Source: Chromatiales bacterium (GTDB lineage Bacteria; Pseudomonadota; Gammaproteobacteria; RBG-16-57-12). From it: a DNA stretch of 64,000 nt. This document shows, piece by piece, positions 26,534 to 43,855 of this stretch; within the stretch, counting starts at the first letter, position 1, and every line of letters begins with the position of its first letter. A program made the translations under genes and the position numbers. The stretch is taken from the NCBI GenBank assembly GCA_026989455.1, contig JALSJH010000059.1, positions 784 through 64,783 of the forward strand, written 5' to 3'. The notes under the pieces are model-generated. The model was not told where the DNA came from, made no database searches, and saw only the letters and a list, made by a program, of their open reading frames with translations.

Positions 26534-28735
26534 ATGTCGAGTCGTCAACCTATCTGGTCAGTAGCTGTTCCTTCGCCTCTGCGTCGCCGTTTTGACTATC
26601 TGCTGCCCGATGATTTTACAGCAGTGCCTAGGCCGGGGCAGCGGGTAGAGGTTCCTTTCGGTGGTCGCCAATTAGTGGGGGTGCTACTTCAATCGTTGAA
26701 TAAGGGCAGTGCCACGCCCCATAATAAGCTTAAAAGTATGGTCAGGGTGTTGGATGAGGAGGCATTGCTAGGTGGTACGCTGTTTCGTTTGTTGGAGTGG
26801 AGCAGTCGCTATTACCACCATCCCATTGGCGAGGTTTTTTCCGTAGCACTGCCGACTCTGCTACGCAAAGGGGGCGATTTGGCATATCGCGGGCAGCGCT
26901 GTTGGCAGCTGAGTGATGCAGCTCTCGAAGTTGATCCAGAGCAGCTTAAACGGGCACCCAAGCAGCGCCAGCTGCTGTCACTGTTGATCGAGCATAGGGT
27001 GTTGAGTGACCGGCAACTAAATCAACACGCCAAGGGGTGGCAAGCGGCGATGCGCCTGTTACGCGAGAAGGGGTTGGTGGTCATCGAGCAGCAACCTGAG
27101 ATAGGCCAAGTCGCTGCGGAAGAGGTGAAAGAACTCAACTCGGAGCAATCGATAGCGGTTAATGATGTGGTTTCAGGTTTATCGGCTTTTCACCCCTTTT
27201 TGTTGAATGGGGTGACGGGTTCGGGCAAAACAGAAGTCTATCTCTCCATTGCTGAAAAGGTGATTGAGCAGGGTCGTCAGGTGTTGATTTTGGTGCCTGA
27301 GATAGGGCTCACCCCCCAGTTAGTGACACGTTTTCAGCAGCGCTTTGCGGTGCCCATTGCCTTGATGCACTCAGGATTAAGTGATCAAGAGCGCCTCGAT
27401 AGCTGGATGATTGCCCGTGATGGTCGCGCTCCGCTGGTGATCGGTACCCGTTCAGCGGTCTTTGCACAGATGAAAAATCTGGGTCTGATTATTGTTGATG
27501 AGGAGCATGACGGCTCGCTTAAACAGCAGGATGGTTTTCGTTACTCCGCCCGTGATGTGGCGGTGATGCGTGCGCGCCTTGAAAAAGTAGCCATTGTTTT
27601 GGGTTCAGCAACCCCCTCGCTGGAGACGTTGTATAACGTGGCTCAGGGGCGGTATCGGGAGCTTAAGTTGACCCAGCGGGCGGGCGGTGCCAAGCCACCG
27701 AAGATCGAGGCACTGGATGTGCGGGGGCAATATATGGAGCATGGCATCTCCAATGCGCTGATCACTCGAATGCGCCAGCACCTGGGAAAATCGGGGCAGG
27801 TATTGCTGTTTCTGAATCGTCGAGGCTACTCACCCACTCTGCTGTGCCACGATTGTGGCTGGTCTGCCGAGTGTCAGCGCTGTGATAGTCACATGGTGTT
27901 GCATCAGCGCGAACAGCGGCTTCGTTGCCACCACTGCGGTAAAGATGAACGCATGGTGCGGGTTTGCCCACAATGTAAAAGTGAGCAGTTGCGCTCCATA
28001 GGCCAGGGAACGGAGCGTATTGAAGAGGCGTTGCAACACCATTTCCCCGAGTACAGCATTGTTAGGATTGATCGTGATAGCACCCGGCGCAAGGGTTCAC
28101 TTCAGGCGATGATTGATGGGGTTCATGAGGGTAAACACCAGATTTTACTGGGCACGCAAATGCTGGCAAAAGGGCATCACTTTCCGAATGTGACGCTGGT
28201 GGGGATTCTCGATGCAGAGCAGGGGCTGTTCAGTGCTGATTACCGTGCCGTGGAGCGTATGGCGCAACAGATCCTGCAAGTGGCTGGGCGAGCAGGCCGG
28301 GCGCAGCGCCCGGGTACGGTTATCATTCAAACCCACCACCCTGAACACCCGATGTTGCGCGAGCTGTTGGAGCAGGGTTACACAAAGTTTTCCAGTGCGC
28401 TGATGCGTGAACGAAAAGAGACCGAGATGCCGCCTTTTACTGCATTAGCCCTGCTGCGGGCGGAGTCCACCGACCAAGCATTGCCGCAATGCTTTTTGAG
28501 TGAGGTTTATCAGTTAGCTGCGGCGCACCAGTTGCCCGATGTTCTTCTATTAGGCCCGGTGCCCTCTCCCATGGAGCGTCGGGCGGGTCGTTACCGTGCG
28601 CAGCTGTTAATTCAGACCCCCCAACGAGGTGCTTTGCATCGCCTTTTGGAGCGACTGCTGCCGCAACTGGAAAAAAGCAAGTTGGGGCGCAAGGTGCGTT
28701 GGTCGCTGGATATCGATCCCATCGAAATGTATTAG
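26534..28735 (+). CDS. priA: Primosomal protein N' (replication restart helicase)
   Basis: Walker A GVTGSGKTEVY, DEEH box, and a Cys-rich zinc-binding region (CHDCGWSAECQRCD ... CHHCG ... CPQC). Confidence 0.9.
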   Translation: MSSRQPIWSVAVPSPLRRRFDYLLPDDFTAVPRPGQRVEVPFGGRQLVGVLLQSLNKGSATPHNKLKSMVRVLDEEALLGGTLFRLLEWSSRYYHHPIGEVFSVALPTLLRKGGDLAYRGQRCWQLSDAALEVDPEQLKRAPKQRQLLSLLIEHRVLSDRQLNQHAKGWQAAMRLLREKGLVVIEQQPEIGQVAAEEVKELNSEQSIAVNDVVSGLSAFHPFLLNGVTGSGKTEVYLSIAEKVIEQGRQVLILVPEIGLTPQLVTRFQQRFAVPIALMHSGLSDQERLDSWMIARDGRAPLVIGTRSAVFAQMKNLGLIIVDEEHDGSLKQQDGFRYSARDVAVMRARLEKVAIVLGSATPSLETLYNVAQGRYRELKLTQRAGGAKPPKIEALDVRGQYMEHGISNALITRMRQHLGKSGQVLLFLNRRGYSPTLLCHDCGWSAECQRCDSHMVLHQREQRLRCHHCGKDERMVRVCPQCKSEQLRSIGQGTERIEEALQHHFPEYSIVRIDRDSTRRKGSLQAMIDGVHEGKHQILLGTQMLAKGHHFPNVTLVGILDAEQGLFSADYRAVERMAQQILQVAGRAGRAQRPGTVIIQTHHPEHPMLRELLEQGYTKFSSALMRERKETEMPPFTALALLRAESTDQALPQCFLSEVYQLAAAHQLPDVLLLGPVPSPMERRAGRYRAQLLIQTPQRGALHRLLERLLPQLEKSKLGRKVRWSLDIDPIEMY

Positions 28736-28997
28736 TGTAGTGTCCTAAACTGTATGCGTATTAAGACGAGACGAAACAGGTTAGCTGGTAGGCGCGCCCT
28801 CGCAGGGGTAGCCACTCTACCTCAAGAGGACGCAACACCCCAGGTGGCCTGTTTCGTCTCGCCCGAAGGGAAGCCATTAAATACACGATTGCGGCGTTGC
28901 AGACCTTGGAAAGGGAGCGGCCATTCCCTGCGGTCTGCGTCTGGCACTCGCGTATTTACTGGCTTTCTTAATATGCATACAGTTTAGGACACTACAC
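28735..28997. mobile_element. MITE-like palindromic element with 31-bp terminal inverted repeats (30/31 identical) and nested internal hairpins
   Basis: The left TIR GTGTAGTGTCCTAAACTGTATGCGTATTAAG (28735-28765) is the reverse complement of the right TIR at 28967-28997 except for one mismatch. An internal 16-bp inverted repeat (GACGAGACGAAACAGG / CCTGTTTCGTCTCGCC) and further stems are present. No ORF of substance lies inside. The element starts on the last base of the priA stop codon. Confidence 0.5.
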
Positions 28998-29120
28998 TAG
29001 CCCAACCCCTTTCCATCTGGTTTCACCGAAATAATCGTACCGCTCCATTTTGCATCCCGTCAGGATGCGTTAAAATAGCGTCAACAATTAGACACGCTGG
29101 CTACTCTCTGGAGAATTTAC

Positions 29121-30893
29121 TTGAAAGATCATCTACATGGCTTGATTTTGGATGCTGTCGCACAACTTCGCAAAGAGGGGCTTCTTGCCGAAGAGGCGGA
29201 TGTTGATGTGAAAGTCGAGCGCACACGGGACTCCTCACATGGTGATTTTGCCACCAATGTTGCCATGGTGATGGCTAAGCACGCGCGTCGTAAACCACGT
29301 GACTTAGCTGAGATGGTTATCGAGCGACTGCCGAGTTCGGCGAGTGTGAGTAAGGTTGAAGTGGCAGGACCTGGCTTTATAAATTTCTATATTACTGATG
29401 ATGTGCTGCAATCGGTTGTTAAGCGGATTGCCGCAGCGGGTGAGCGCTATGGCCATAGCACGATGGGTGAGGGCAAGCTGGTTCAGGTTGAATTTGTCTC
29501 GGCTAATCCTACTGGGCCGCTGCATGTGGGGCATGGCCGTGGGGCGGCTTATGGCGCAGCGGTGGCTGATCTGTTGGCTGCTGTGGGTTATCGTGTTCAC
29601 CGCGAATATTATGTGAACGATGCGGGTCGACAGATGGATATATTGGCCGCTTCAGTCTGGTTACGTTATTTACAGGTTTGTGGTGAAGAGATTGTTTTTC
29701 CGACGAATGGTTATAAAGGTGATTATGTCTCGGATATTGCCCGTTTATTGAAAGAGCGTGAGGGTGATCGATTCAAACAGGCAGCAGATGACGTGTTATC
29801 GGGCCACCCACTGGATGCGCAGCCAGATGGTAGCGGCGATAAAGAGGCCTATATTGATTCTGTTATCAGCCGCGCAAAGCAGCTGTTAGGCGTAGATGGC
29901 TACCGTACTGTTTTTGACCATGGTCTGGATTTGATACTGGATGATATTCGGCAAGATTTGCAAGAGTTTGGTGTTACCTATGATGATTGGTATTCCGAGC
30001 GCTCATTAACAGAAGGTAGCAGTGATAAGGTTCAGCAGGCACTCGACCGCCTGGAGTCCAATGGCCACATTTACTTGAAAGAGGGTGCCAAGTGGTTTAA
30101 GTCCAGTGAATTTGGTGATGAGAAGGATCGGGTTGTGGTGCGTGATAATGGCCAGACAACCTATTTTGCCTCTGATATCGCCTACCATATGGAGAAGCTT
30201 GAACGCGGTTACGAGCGGGTTATCGATGTCTGGGGTGCGGACCACCATGGTTACATTCCTCGGGTTAAAGCCGCACTACAGGCGCTGGGTGATGATGTGA
30301 GCAAGCTGGATGTGTTGTTGGTGCAGTTTGCAATACTTTATCGTGGCGGTGAAAGAGTGCCGATGTCGACCCGTAGTGGCTCCTTTGTGACGCTACGTGA
30401 GCTGCGTAATGAGGTGGGGAACGATGCTGCGCGGTTTTTCTATGTGATGCGTAAAAGCGAACAGCACCTTGATTTTGACCTTGATCTGGCGAAATCGAAG
30501 TCCAATGAAAACCCCATCTATTATATTCAATATGCCCATGCGCGGGTTTGTAGTGTTATGCGCCAATTAGAAGAGAAGGGCCTAAGCTACGACCAAAAGA
30601 GTGCATTTAGTGGGTTGGAGCTGTTGAGTGAAGAGTGTGAGCAGGCACTGCTGGTTGCACTTGCCAAGTTTCCGGAAATTGTTGAGGCGGCAGCGCTTAA
30701 TCATGAGCCTCATCAAATTGCACACTATCTGCGCGACACGGCAAATAAATTTCATACTTACTATAATGCCCATCAATTTATCGTTGAGAGTGGAACGCGG
30801 AGAAATGCACGCCTGGCACTGATTTTAGCGGTTAAACAGGTGTTGGCAAACGGGCTGAGGCTGCTTGGGGTGAGTGCGCCGGAGTCGATGTAA
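29121..30893 (+). CDS. argS: Arginine--tRNA ligase
   Basis: HIGH motif region [14 protein letters not shown] and a C-terminal anticodon-binding domain. TTG start per the ORF track. Confidence 0.9.
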
Positions 30894-33633: not shown

Positions 33634-34021
33634 CCTTATCCCTCTTTATCGGCAAATTGCGCCAATATTGAAGCATCTTAATAAATTGGTGCGCCATAGT
33701 CTATGCCCAGCATTAAACTAACGTAAAAATGGGTGCTAATTTTGGGTTGAGTGTCCTTCATTTATTAGACTTTTTTCAAGTAGAGGCCGTTATGTTACCC
33801 TGTCCGCGTGGTGGTTCATCACATTGTGATTTTTCAAGAATCTGTGGATATTTCAGGGTGCGAAAAGGATTGAAAATGAGAGATAGCCGACGTTTTTTAT
33901 TGCTGAGCCGAGTACAGCGCCTCTACTATCCTGTCGGATCAGTTGGCCTGACCGGCCAACCCTTCGGACAACTCCGTGGTATTCCACTTTGGCGTTATAG
34001 CCCTTGCCAAGGGAGTAACCA

Positions 34022-34987
34022 TTGCCTGCGAGCTATGCCTTGATGCTAAATACCACAAAATCGCTGATCCAACAGTATAGTAGGGTCGCTGTACTAGCCT
34101 GGCTCACGTTGTTAGCTCCGGCCATTGCAGCAGAACCCAGTAAAAATATTTTAGAGCTGCCCGCAGAAGTTCAATTAAACACTCTTACACATATACCTTT
34201 GAGTGAAAGTGAGGTGCGCACCAAGGTGGAGTATGCGCATCGTCTTTTTGATATGAGTCTCGCTAAACGAATTTCTAGCAGTCATCATGAGCAGGCAATA
34301 ATGTTGCTGGAACAAGCGCATGCGCAGGCTGATGCTGCACAACAAGCGCTTGCTAACGGTGCACTGTCTGAGGCTGATGATTTGGTGAATCAGTGCTATC
34401 GCAGCATAGCCATCGCTTCGACGCTGGTGCCCAGCGAGCACCAGCGTGCTCTTGCAAAAACAACGCACTCGAGCATGGTTGAAGGGTTGGCTCACGCCAA
34501 GGAACTCCATGCAAAGGCTTACCAGCGAGTGGCTGAAATCAGTCAGCATGTTAAGTTTGACGCGGAAGCCGTTTATCAACTTGAACAGTTGGCGATGAGT
34601 GAGGTGGTTGATAATAATTACCAAGAGGCCAATCGACATTTGCGGCAAGCTCGAATGCTGGTAGACCTTGCTACCATGAAGATGCTAGATAATCAGACCG
34701 TTACCTATCACGTTGATGTCAGCACACCAGCGCTGGAGTATCAATATGAGGTGGGGCGTTTTCGCAGTTACGAAGAGCTTATTCCGGTAGCCATTGAGAT
34801 GAAAAAGCCCAATAAAATGCAGTTGATGTTGATTACTCGAAAGGTGGATGAAGGCTTGTGGAAGGCTGAGCAGGCACAAATCACGGCAGATGCGGGGGAT
34901 TACCCCAAGGCCATCCGTATGGTGATGGATGCCTCTGTTGATATTCGCAGGGGCTTGAAGCTGATGAAAGTAAAGCTCTATGAATAG
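34022..34987 (+). CDS. Hypothetical secreted alpha-helical protein
   Basis: A signal-peptide-like segment (VAVLAWLTLLAPAIAA) after an internal Met at about 34043. The remainder is helical and rich in A/E/Q, with no known motif. Confidence 0.5.
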   Translation: MPASYALMLNTTKSLIQQYSRVAVLAWLTLLAPAIAAEPSKNILELPAEVQLNTLTHIPLSESEVRTKVEYAHRLFDMSLAKRISSSHHEQAIMLLEQAHAQADAAQQALANGALSEADDLVNQCYRSIAIASTLVPSEHQRALAKTTHSSMVEGLAHAKELHAKAYQRVAEISQHVKFDAEAVYQLEQLAMSEVVDNNYQEANRHLRQARMLVDLATMKMLDNQTVTYHVDVSTPALEYQYEVGRFRSYEELIPVAIEMKKPNKMQLMLITRKVDEGLWKAEQAQITADAGDYPKAIRMVMDASVDIRRGLKLMKVKLYE

Positions 34988-36367: not shown

Positions 36368-36658
36368 TGTGTATAATTCATTTCAAGCAGGCATTGCTTT
36401 AGGAGGCTCTGATCAAGTCATGAATGTTTTATGTTGGCTGAAATCGTCCTCATTTATCCCGAAAATTGCACCAATAGAGCAACTATTACTGCGTATTTCG
36501 GAGCAAATGAGAGCAATTTCCTCTCAGCCTAAATTAATCCAGACTTAACCAGAGACTCCTTTGGAGTTATTCCGAATAACATCCATTATTGTGAAGTGTT
36601 CGGAACCGCTATTGGCAATGACCAACAACATTAAAAGCAGTCGTCAGGAGAGACTCTC

Positions 36659-37689: not shown

Positions 37690-37741
37690 GCGAATAAAAT
37701 AGACAAAGGGAGCTTAGGCTCCCTTTGTCTGTTTTATTCGC
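37690..37741 (+). terminator. Strong hairpin between recA and recX (24-bp perfect stem, 4-nt loop)
   Basis: GCGAATAAAATAGACAAAGGGAGC-TTAG-GCTCCCTTTGTCTGTTTTATTCGC, followed by CTCTCTATTG. Likely the recA terminator/attenuator controlling recX read-through. Confidence 0.6.
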
Positions 37742-43065: not shown

Positions 43066-43155
43066 GGAGAGCTGGCCGAGTGGCTGAAGGCGCACCCCTG
43101 CTAAGGGTGTATAGGGGTAACTCTATCGAGGGTTCGAATCCCTCGCTCTCCGCCA
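43066..43155 (+). tRNA. tRNA-Ser (anticodon GCU)
   Basis: Cloverleaf starting GGAGAGCTGGCCGAGTGG with a long variable arm, anticodon loop CTGCTAA, TpsiC GGTTCGAATCC, and 3' CCA encoded. Confidence 0.85.
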
Positions 43156-43255
43156 TTATTTATTGATTTTATTGGAAAAACTCCTCCGGTAAATAGAAGA
43201 GATAATGAGTTGACATGTGTTAGTTAAATTAGCATAATGCGCACCTCAGAACAAT

Positions 43256-43332
43256 GCGCTCGTAGCTCAGCTGGATAGAGTACCTGGCTACGAACCAGGG
43301 GGTCGCAGGTTCGAATCCTGCCGAGCGCACCA
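43256..43332 (+). tRNA. tRNA-Arg (anticodon ACG)
   Basis: GCGCTCGTAGCTCAGCTGGATAGAGTA ... anticodon loop CTACGAA ... GGTTCGAATCC ... CGAGCGCACCA. An upstream promoter TTGACA-N17-CATAAT is visible. Confidence 0.85.
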
Positions 43333-43340
43333 TATAGAAT

Positions 43341-43369
43341 AAAAAAACCAGCAAATTGCTGGTTTTTTT
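43341..43369 (+). terminator. Rho-independent terminator after tRNA-Arg
   Basis: AAAAAAACCAGCAAATTGCTGGTTTTTTT is a perfect hairpin flanked by A and T runs, so it may act bidirectionally. Confidence 0.6.
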
Positions 43370-43768
43370 ATGCCTGTGTATCTCTCCTGCTCTCACCAAT
43401 AGCGCTTTCTTAGGGGATCACTGACTAAGTCTGGATGAGTTTAGGCTGAGAGGGGGTTGCTCTCATTTGTTCCGAAATGCGCAGTAATGGTCGTTCTATT
43501 GGGGTGGTTTTCAGTAAAAATGAGGGTGGCTTCAGCTAGCATAAGATATTCATGACTTGATCAGAGCTTCCTTGGTGAAGCGTCTTCAGGCTTTTGATTG
43601 TCCATGCTTGCATGGTCTGTAATCATTGGGTGTTGGTGTAAGCCGTTGTTTCACGCTCCACAAGTGGAGTGGTCATGGCCGGCGTTAGGCAGTGTGGTGA
43701 GAGTCAAAGTGTGAAAGCTGTTAAGGCGTAGTGCGGGGTTTGTGATTGTCTAGTGTGGTTTGAAAATA

Positions 43769-43855
43769 TGGTGCCTGGGAGAGGACTTGAACCTCCACGG
43801 GGTTGCCCCCACTAGCACCTGAAGCTAGCGTGTCTACCAATTTCACCACCCAGGC
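43769..43855 (-). tRNA. tRNA-Leu (anticodon CAG)
   Basis: The reverse complement reads GCCTGGGTGGTGAAATTGGTAGACACGCTAGCTTCAGGTGCTAGTGGGGGCAACCCCGTGGAGGTTCAAGTCCTCTCCCAGGCACCA. It has a long variable arm and anticodon loop TTCAGGT. Confidence 0.8.

Follow-up and report, generated by a model that had tools for sequence, protein, structure and literature searches.

The priA-argS intergenic region of an uncultured gammaproteobacterium carries a 263-bp noncoding element, here called El1, that is very probably a non-autonomous DNA transposon of the MITE type (miniature inverted-repeat transposable element), inserted with duplication of a TA dinucleotide. The region lies within a 64,000-nt stretch of contig JALSJH010000059.1 from a Chromatiales bacterium (assembly GCA_026989455.1). 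This whole stretch is called the window, and coordinates refer to it unless another locus is named. El1 (28735-28997, + strand, ends GTGTAG...CTACAC) represents a new MITE family of a well-known class, from uncultured marine-sediment Gammaproteobacteria. In itself it matters little, but it provides a clean textbook case: a stop codon regenerated on insertion, empty sites in three relatives, and related copies in hosts of different GC content, which implies horizontal spread. Two features go beyond the ordinary. An internal hairpin with a covarying stem is conserved above the transposon ends, and a related element, El2, supplies a start codon and n-region to a host gene.

Insertion of El1 at the priA stop codon

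Orthologous loci of relatives were fetched through the SPOR-domain gene downstream of argS. In the window, priA is an ORF of 733 aa (26534-28735, + strand; stop codon TAG at 28733-28735), and its orthologues are 733 aa long with PriA Pfam domains. The argS gene is an ORF of 590 aa (29121-30893, + strand), recognized from the ORF list and the Pfam annotation of its orthologues. In three relatives (L014, assembly GCA_054017615.1, 89% argS nucleotide identity; L016, GCA_021647245.1, 85%; and L017), priA is followed by argS only 111-117 nt away, with an empty site containing a single TA, ...ATGTATTA|GC.... The junction of these relatives, ...AATGTATTA|GC..., corresponds in the window to ...AATGTAT-TA-[GTGTAG...263 bp...CTACAC]-TA-GCCC. 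A single-TA empty site is thus set against a TA[263 bp]TA filled site, and the net insertion of 265 bp consists of the 263-bp element and the duplicated TA. The left copy of the target TA (28733-28734) doubles as the TA of the priA TAG, and the empty-site comparison places the right copy at 28998-28999. Because the first base of El1 is G, the TAG stop codon is recreated and PriA is unchanged, at 733 aa in the window and in all compared relatives. Judged from these alignments, El1 is an insertion whose target was precisely the TA within the stop codon of priA.

An earlier reading of the window from its letters only (the sequence-only reading) had noticed that the element shares the final G of the priA TAG with its own first base, and had proposed a comparison with relatives lacking the element; that comparison yields the precise single-TA empty site in the three relatives above. 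It had also reasoned that a single copy, present at the identical locus in all relatives, would speak for a conserved RNA or terminator. The opposite was found, namely, empty sites and dispersed copies. One close strain of the same species (GCA_054019255.1, L010; argS 98% nucleotide identity) carries El1 at the same locus, on a contig that ends inside the palindrome.

The native argS spacer is intact downstream of El1 and is conserved in the empty-site relatives. It contains two sigma-70-like promoter matches (29049-29116, + strand; consensus scan only), and argS probably keeps its own promoter.

A repeat search identified inverted arms at 28733-28766 and 28966-28999 that are 34 nt long with one mismatch, comprising 31-nt arms plus the flanking TA on each side. 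The 31-nt terminal inverted repeats (TIRs) described previously (28735-28765 and 28967-28997, with a single mismatch) are therefore present. We delimit the left TIR as 28735-28766 and the right TIR as 28966-28997; the left arm has a single variable position across the three full copies described below, and the arms are conserved in all copies. The 23-nt core of the TIR occurs exactly twice in the window, and none is expected from 100 dinucleotide shuffles.

Nested within these arms are two further inverted pairs, each with 22-nt arms that are 86% complementary. The first (28767-28788 and 28840-28861) includes a perfect stretch of 14-16 nt, recognizable as the nested 16-bp repeat reported by the sequence-only reading, and the second (28871-28892 and 28944-28965) corresponds to its "further stem-loops". 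These pairs form the 22-bp basal stems of hairpin A (28767-28861, - strand) and, according to the repeat search and the fold, hairpin B (28871-28965, + strand). The predicted fold of the element is Y-shaped, with a 34-bp closing stem, two hairpins of ~95 nt, and the central mini-palindrome CCCGAAGGG (28862-28870) at the center of symmetry. Its folding energy is -159.8 kcal/mol (z = -14.1 for the + strand and -12.6 for the - strand), and 0 of 200 shuffles are as good.

The only ORF within the 263 bp, of 77 aa (28754-28987), is not conserved: frameshifts and stops break it in both other full copies, and no relative was found among 5.8 billion proteins. As had been suspected, this ORF is spurious. 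Outward translation from El1 was also rejected, as all three outward frames meet stops before the end of the element.

Copies elsewhere were sought with an exact 21-mer scan of metagenome contigs (JGI/ENA) and an 18-mer scan of 185,579 GTDB species genomes. The metagenome scan detected four El1-type loci (L006, L007, L008, and L009). Two of these hold full-length copies that are ~90% identical to El1 of the window: a 265-bp copy from marine sediment (L006) and a 284-bp copy (L008) whose hairpin B carries 21 inserted nt in its loop. The other two loci share one 45-nt sequence, composed of the two El1 TIRs alone with TA...TA flanks (L007, 1872-1916; L009, 13846-13890, - strand) and present in two JGI samples. 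By its sequence, this TIR-TIR palindrome is an internal-deletion derivative of El1. The GTDB scan returned four chance matches and one real relative, a right TIR of the El1 type that stands alone, with 25 of 26 nt identical, directly after the stop codon of a PDZ-protease gene (L003, 299-328). L003 belongs to SI074_bin90 (JABJKL010000243.1), a Saanich-Inlet-type proteobacterial metagenome-assembled genome.

In L006, L008, and L007/L009, neither the flanking sequence nor the neighboring genes are related to those of priA and argS. The L006 copy lies between a GGDEF/GAF gene and an O-methyltransferase gene, the L008 copy adjoins an unannotated ORF and a metallophosphoesterase gene, and the L007 copy is between DUF6998 and a small ORF. 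The host loci of the other copies have a GC content of 40-45%, versus 50% for the window, so the hosts differ and horizontal spread is implied. In the four copies that can be compared at their junctions (window, L006, L008, and L007), the flanks are TA...TA, with a pyrimidine before and G after (YTA|G); the target reads CTAG in L006 and L008, and TTAG in the window and L007. A search for copies and target-site duplications, also recommended by the sequence-only reading, thus gave ~90% identical copies in unrelated neighborhoods, all flanked by TA. The full copies, the 45-nt derivative, and the solo TIR come from marine-sediment metagenomes and metagenome-assembled genomes, each at a YTA|G site.

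Core hairpin and the related elements El2 and El3

A profile built from the three El1 copies revealed a second element in the window, El2 (33912-34094, + strand, 183 bp), and a third element, El3, is present in L003 (1077-1213). Both have the same core hairpin as El1 (33989-34043 in El2) and different termini. The termini of El1 and El2 are weakly alike (21 of 38 positions identical; 7 of 500 shuffles are as good). The shared core, of ~55 nt (28891-28945 in El1, + strand), consists of GTT, a 7-bp covarying stem, CTTGGAAAGGGAGnnnCCATTCCCTGCG, the return stem, and GCCT. Its loop region (~30 nt) is nearly invariant among the three elements. The stem sequences, in contrast, differ fully and yet pair: GCAGACC/GGTCTGC in El1, ATAGCCC/GAGCTAT in El2, and GTGCCTC/GAGGCAT in El3. 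Across five distinct sequences, 95% of the cells in this stem are paired, with changes on both sides in 6 of the 7 stem pairs. This degree of pairing was reached by 0 of 500 shuffles, and slid controls were 34-56% paired.

The covariance model of the core, R1, finds a further match on the opposite strand, at the apex of hairpin A, with scores of 19 bits in the window, 12.7 in L006, and 19.8 in L008. Hairpin A aligns with the reverse complement of hairpin B at 58 of 101 positions (z = 3.3), whereas its direct alignment with hairpin B is not significant. Hairpin A shows compensatory changes, among them a paired 1-nt indel. Given the inverted core match, the apex of hairpin A (28787-28841, minus strand) is read as a diverged, inverted copy of the core, and El1 as a second-order palindrome in which a TIR and an inverted core hairpin are followed by CCCGAAGGG, a core hairpin, and a TIR. 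This arrangement would most simply reflect the inverted duplication of a single transposon end, by which the TIR and its subterminal hairpin came to stand twice around the center.

MITE families do not usually keep a core better than their ends, and this pattern suggests that selection acts on the single strand in its folded form. We infer from the aligned sequences that the subterminal core hairpin is under selection, either as a cis-acting signal of the element or as an RNA structure. The second option leads to a possible, though doubtful, proposal that supplements the MITE reading and does not replace it: the core hairpin of the MITE may be a functional + strand RNA module that acts in cis on co-transcribed neighbors. 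It might serve, for example, as a determinant of RNase processing or stability, or as a translation-initiation hairpin that sequesters a Shine-Dalgarno (SD) sequence, and such a module would explain the persistence of the family.

In favor of this proposal are the near-invariant loop and the two-sided changes in the stem, at a level matched by none of the shuffles. G-U wobbles are also compatible with the + strand (4 versus 1 on the - strand in the core, and 9 versus 4 over El1), and the downstream gene runs in the + direction in each of the four cases open to judgment (argS, the methyltransferase gene in L006, the host gene of El2, and the kinase gene at El3). However, neither the wobble counts nor the orientation counts are statistically significant. 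Within the core, AAGGGAG pairs with TTCCCT in a manner resembling an SD/anti-SD interaction, but the second, inverted core copy in hairpin A of El1 has a different, non-SD-like apical hairpin. The covariation derives from five distinct sequences in three lineages, and palindromic DNA can gain compensatory changes by intrastrand templated repair, without any RNA function. Moreover, scans with Rfam 15 covariance models found no family for these elements: the only hits were at chance level, MIR844 for El1 (20 bits against a gathering score of 70) and drum for El2 (14 bits; gathering score 43), and El3 had none.

It seems rather unlikely, on the sequence evidence, that transposons carry in this core a functional structured nucleic-acid module not described before. 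Such a module could be a single-strand signal that mobilization requires in cis, or an outward-facing SD/anti-SD RNA that restarts translation of, or processes, host-gene mRNA. If this were true, El2, at a signal peptide, and El3, at a histidine kinase, would be apparent examples of the core RNA acting on host genes.

El2 has an imperfect outer repeat of ~37 nt (33906-33942 and 34064-34100; 84% complementary), and its fold has a z score of -7.4. It is located in the signal-peptide coding region of a gene for a 308-aa protein, after ...LLLS. In L016, L017, and L025, the site is empty and the gene is uninterrupted, with the 308-aa protein starting MRDSRCFLLLSLAWLVLLAPAIAAEP...; this presence/absence polymorphism among aligned loci proves El2 to be an insertion. 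The flanks of El2 reconstruct an ancestral CTG AGC C-TA-G CC TGG, which points to a CTAG target whose left TA has since mutated to GA.

The old start codon (ATG, 33877) now opens an ORF that is annotated as an 83-aa protein in L010. This ORF matches only itself in the database of 5.8 billion proteins, and it is spurious. The gene now starts inside the element, at TTG 34022 (6 nt after AAGGGAG) or at ATG 34043, and its frame continues through the right arm to what is left of the h-region, MLNTTKSLIQQYSRVAVL|AWLTLLAPAIAAEP. The TTG, which is the start used by gene callers, is due to a C-to-G change; the same change disrupts the core's AGGGAG/TTCCCT pairing, and this coincidence is a further point in favor of an RNA module. 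El2 is thus a concrete example of a MITE remodeling a protein N-terminus by contributing a start codon and n-region.

El3 lies between the gene for an OmpR-type response regulator and that for its histidine kinase. The ATG of the kinase gene (L003 1176) is in the right arm of El3, just after the core, and the El1-type solo right TIR of the same locus is ~750 bp upstream of El3.

For annotation, the consequence is that the 77-aa and 83-aa ORFs should be treated as spurious and that assemblies break inside these palindromes. Among assemblies of the same species, that of L010 breaks at position 1, inside El1 directly after hairpin A, and three independent assemblies (L011, L012, and L013) break at position 1 at nearly one point inside argS. 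These observations suggest that the breaks in L010-L013 are due to palindromes or to strain variation.

Proposed transposition mechanism, alternative readings, and surrounding sequences

In the most likely mechanism, a DDE transposase supplied in trans would bind the TIRs of El1 and cut and paste the element into TA, with a preference for CTAG/TTAG. Duplication of TA at CTAG/TTAG is a hallmark of IS630/Tc1-mariner transposases, and the arrangement Y-TA-[element]-TA-G is found in the window, L006, L008, and L007. Judged by this target, the transposase is probably of the IS630/Tc1-mariner type; an IS5-family enzyme (IS427-like) is a possible alternative. A 4-nt YTAG duplication, as in IS5-type elements and MITEPsy1, was rejected, as the left junction reads TTAG and the right one CTAG in both the window and L007, and the empty site is TTAG.

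Several observations weigh against identifying El1 as a MITE of this type. No autonomous parent insertion sequence (IS) with matching TIRs was found in the 185,579 GTDB species genomes (18-mer), in the JGI/ENA metagenome contigs (21-mer), or in IMG/VR (TIR scan), and BLAST searches with El1 and its TIR against plasmids and phages gave neither a parent IS nor copies; exact-pattern and BLAST searches of this kind would miss diverged TIRs. Because these searches found no parent IS, the transposase is assigned by inference. The junctions would equally suit a duplication of 3 nt, TAG, although it would make the ends of El1 asymmetric, and the transposase family is thus not fixed. The core is better conserved than the termini among El1, El2, and El3, the reverse of what is expected of a family defined solely by the transposase's recognition of its TIRs. 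Finally, there is one El1 copy in 64 kb of the host and none in roughly 150 kb of related genomes.

El1 is a single copy within the window, and nhmmer and covariance model R1 found no further copies in ~245 kb of relatives' and other loci. The exact-pattern scans covered other genomes; that of the host lies outside the GTDB and metagenome collections scanned. A scan of IMG/VR with the core motif gave no match, and querying the literature with the sequence itself produced nothing beyond a Plasmodium paper of no relevance.

It is very unlikely that El1 is instead mobilized in single-stranded form, as IS200/IS605 or REPIN/RAYT elements are, by an HUH/Y1 transposase that recognizes the subterminal hairpins, in which case the apparent TA duplication would be the target tetranucleotide together with a matching element end. 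Conserved, covarying subterminal hairpins, such as El1 has, serve HUH transposases (IS608/ISDra2) as recognition elements. The termini also contain GTAG/CTAC motifs, as do REP sequences, and the junctions alone fit "TA duplicated" and "inserted 3' of TA, ending in TA" alike. However, the ends of IS200/IS605 elements are not mutual inverted repeats and have both hairpins on the same strand, whereas those of El1 are 34-bp near-perfect inverted repeats with core hairpins on opposite strands. REPINs, for their part, have far smaller sizes and mostly high copy numbers. Near none of the copies was a tnpA or RAYT gene seen, and TA is present on both sides of all four copies examined.

REP sequences are imperfect palindromes of 20-40 nt (~100 nt for the inverted pair of a REPIN), with no target-site duplication, an associated RAYT gene, and a high copy number. 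A RAYT-mobilized REP or REPIN was therefore rejected for El1, which has 263 bp, 34-bp TIRs, a TA duplication, and no RAYT-like neighbor gene. The sequence-only reading had left the choice between a MITE and an ERIC/REP-like repeat. Its first option stood, on the strength of the empty sites and dispersed copies; its second did not, as ERIC and REP differ in sequence and architecture.

Other candidates were considered by eye only, and dropped: integron attC R'/R'' boxes, a dif/XerCD site, an IHF site, and group II intron ends. Two more, likewise considered by eye only, were a sigma-54 promoter, for which the spacing fits in El1 and the GG is missing in El2, and a retron msr/msd, for which no reverse transcriptase is nearby.

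With regard to transcripts of priA and argS, it had been suggested that the element could act as a 3' terminator. The sequence after the El1 stem is GCCCAACCCC, which contains no U-tract, and a consensus scan found no terminator-like site in the element or at its end and no promoter inside it, so El1 is not an intrinsic (Rho-independent) terminator. Read-through RNA from priA would form a perfect 34-bp duplex closing a three-way junction, and by analogy with the Correia-element model, this duplex would be a likely RNase III substrate or a 3' structure. That El1 is not mobile at all but a resident structured RNA gene, or a cis-regulatory element or terminator of priA/argS, is most improbable: the predicted fold is very stable and the position directly after the stop codon and upstream of argS would suit such a role, but three relatives lack the element in this spacer although their flanking bases align one to one, it occurs in unrelated loci elsewhere, and there is neither a terminator-like site with a U-tract nor an Rfam match.

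Other short elements with TIRs were observed in these genomes. An element of ~160 bp (36400-36559; TIRs GGAGKCTCTGRTYAAGTC) lies between cinA and recA and is absent there in L016, L017, and L025. Its second copy, in L010 (6155-6316), is 86% identical, inverted, and at a different site, equivalent to ~35009 in the window; this different placement in a 98%-identical strain indicates an insertion polymorphism at the strain level. A second element, of ~165 bp with TIRs beginning CCTAGAYCCT, has two copies in GCA_054017615.1 (L025, 6584-6752 and 11532-11694; 78% identical, inverted), one after recA and one after the aspartate kinase gene, and the window has neither insertion (corresponding positions about 37752 and 42527). 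Hence, presence/absence differences between these genomes affect two or more short TIR elements besides El1 and El2, and MITE activity or turnover is evidently common in the lineage.

Elsewhere in the window, a 24-bp hairpin that is 96% complementary with a 4-nt loop (37690-37741) lies 15 nt after the recA stop codon; it is probably the terminator of recA, though of unusual length. Three tRNA genes (43066-43855; two on the + strand and one on the - strand) are downstream of the aspartate kinase gene, within a ~2-kb stretch that lacks an ORF of at least 150 aa and in which relatives have csrA. These tRNAs were the only matches in a scan of the whole window at Rfam gathering scores. Synteny also differs: behind argS and the SPOR gene, GCA_054017615.1 has an SLT/LysM gene block (L014, 5635-7368), which in the window is at 1257-2990, ~28 kb upstream. 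The displacement of this block points to a rearrangement that broke the sequence just downstream of priA-argS-SPOR.

Comparison with known systems

Traits reported for bacterial MITEs include TIRs, terminal TA, target-site duplication, long stem-loop transcripts, and signal-peptide fusions (PMC2229807). The features of El1 agree with those published (PMC2229807, PMC10969869), and we count this agreement in favor of the MITE reading. El1 also shows the traits by which MITEs are defined, being shorter than ~500 bp and having no transposase or other conserved ORF, TIRs, a target-site duplication, and copies dispersed over different contexts, although the window itself holds a single copy.

RUP elements (repeat unit of pneumococcus), which are linked to IS630-Spn1 and its TA target, resemble El1 in being small and noncoding, with TIRs, insertion at TA with duplication, presumed mobilization in trans by an IS630-family transposase, and mostly intergenic locations (PMC2229807). 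They differ in having 107 bp, short TIRs that match IS630-Spn1, and ~100 copies per genome, whereas El1 has 263 bp, TIRs of 31-34 bp, no parent IS found, and two internal core hairpins in inverted orientation.

Correia elements (NEMIS, Neisseria) share with El1 TIRs of ~24-26 bp or more, terminal TA, target-site duplication, and a transcript with a long hairpin (PMC2229807), and the duplexes formed by their TIRs in mRNA are cleaved by RNase III (PMC2229807, PMC10969869). Their conserved internal motif is an IHF site, whereas that of El1 is a covarying hairpin. Correia elements have no sequence similarity to El1, and they are simple hairpins of 100-155 bp, in contrast to its Y-shaped second-order palindrome.

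MITEPsy1 of Pseudomonas syringae, which is derived from the IS5 family, is 100 bp long, has been shown experimentally to be mobile, and inserts at CTAG or YTAA (PMC3189936). A CTAG-type target is therefore not exclusive to IS630. MITEPsy1 differs in duplicating 4 nt, which does not fit two of the four El1 junctions (TTAG on the left, CTAG on the right).

ERIC/IRU and YPAL are also palindromes of imperfect symmetry that insert at TA, and closely related strains differ in whether a given site is filled or empty (PMC2229807). They have 7-bp TIRs, lengths of 127-168 bp, and enterobacterial hosts, and no sequence relationship to El1 was detected. ERIC and YPAL are co-transcribed with their neighbors and affect mRNA stability, and their fusions with ORFs can supply part of a signal peptide, as in YPO1552 (PMC2229807). 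That fusion is a direct precedent for the signal peptide that El2 helps to encode.

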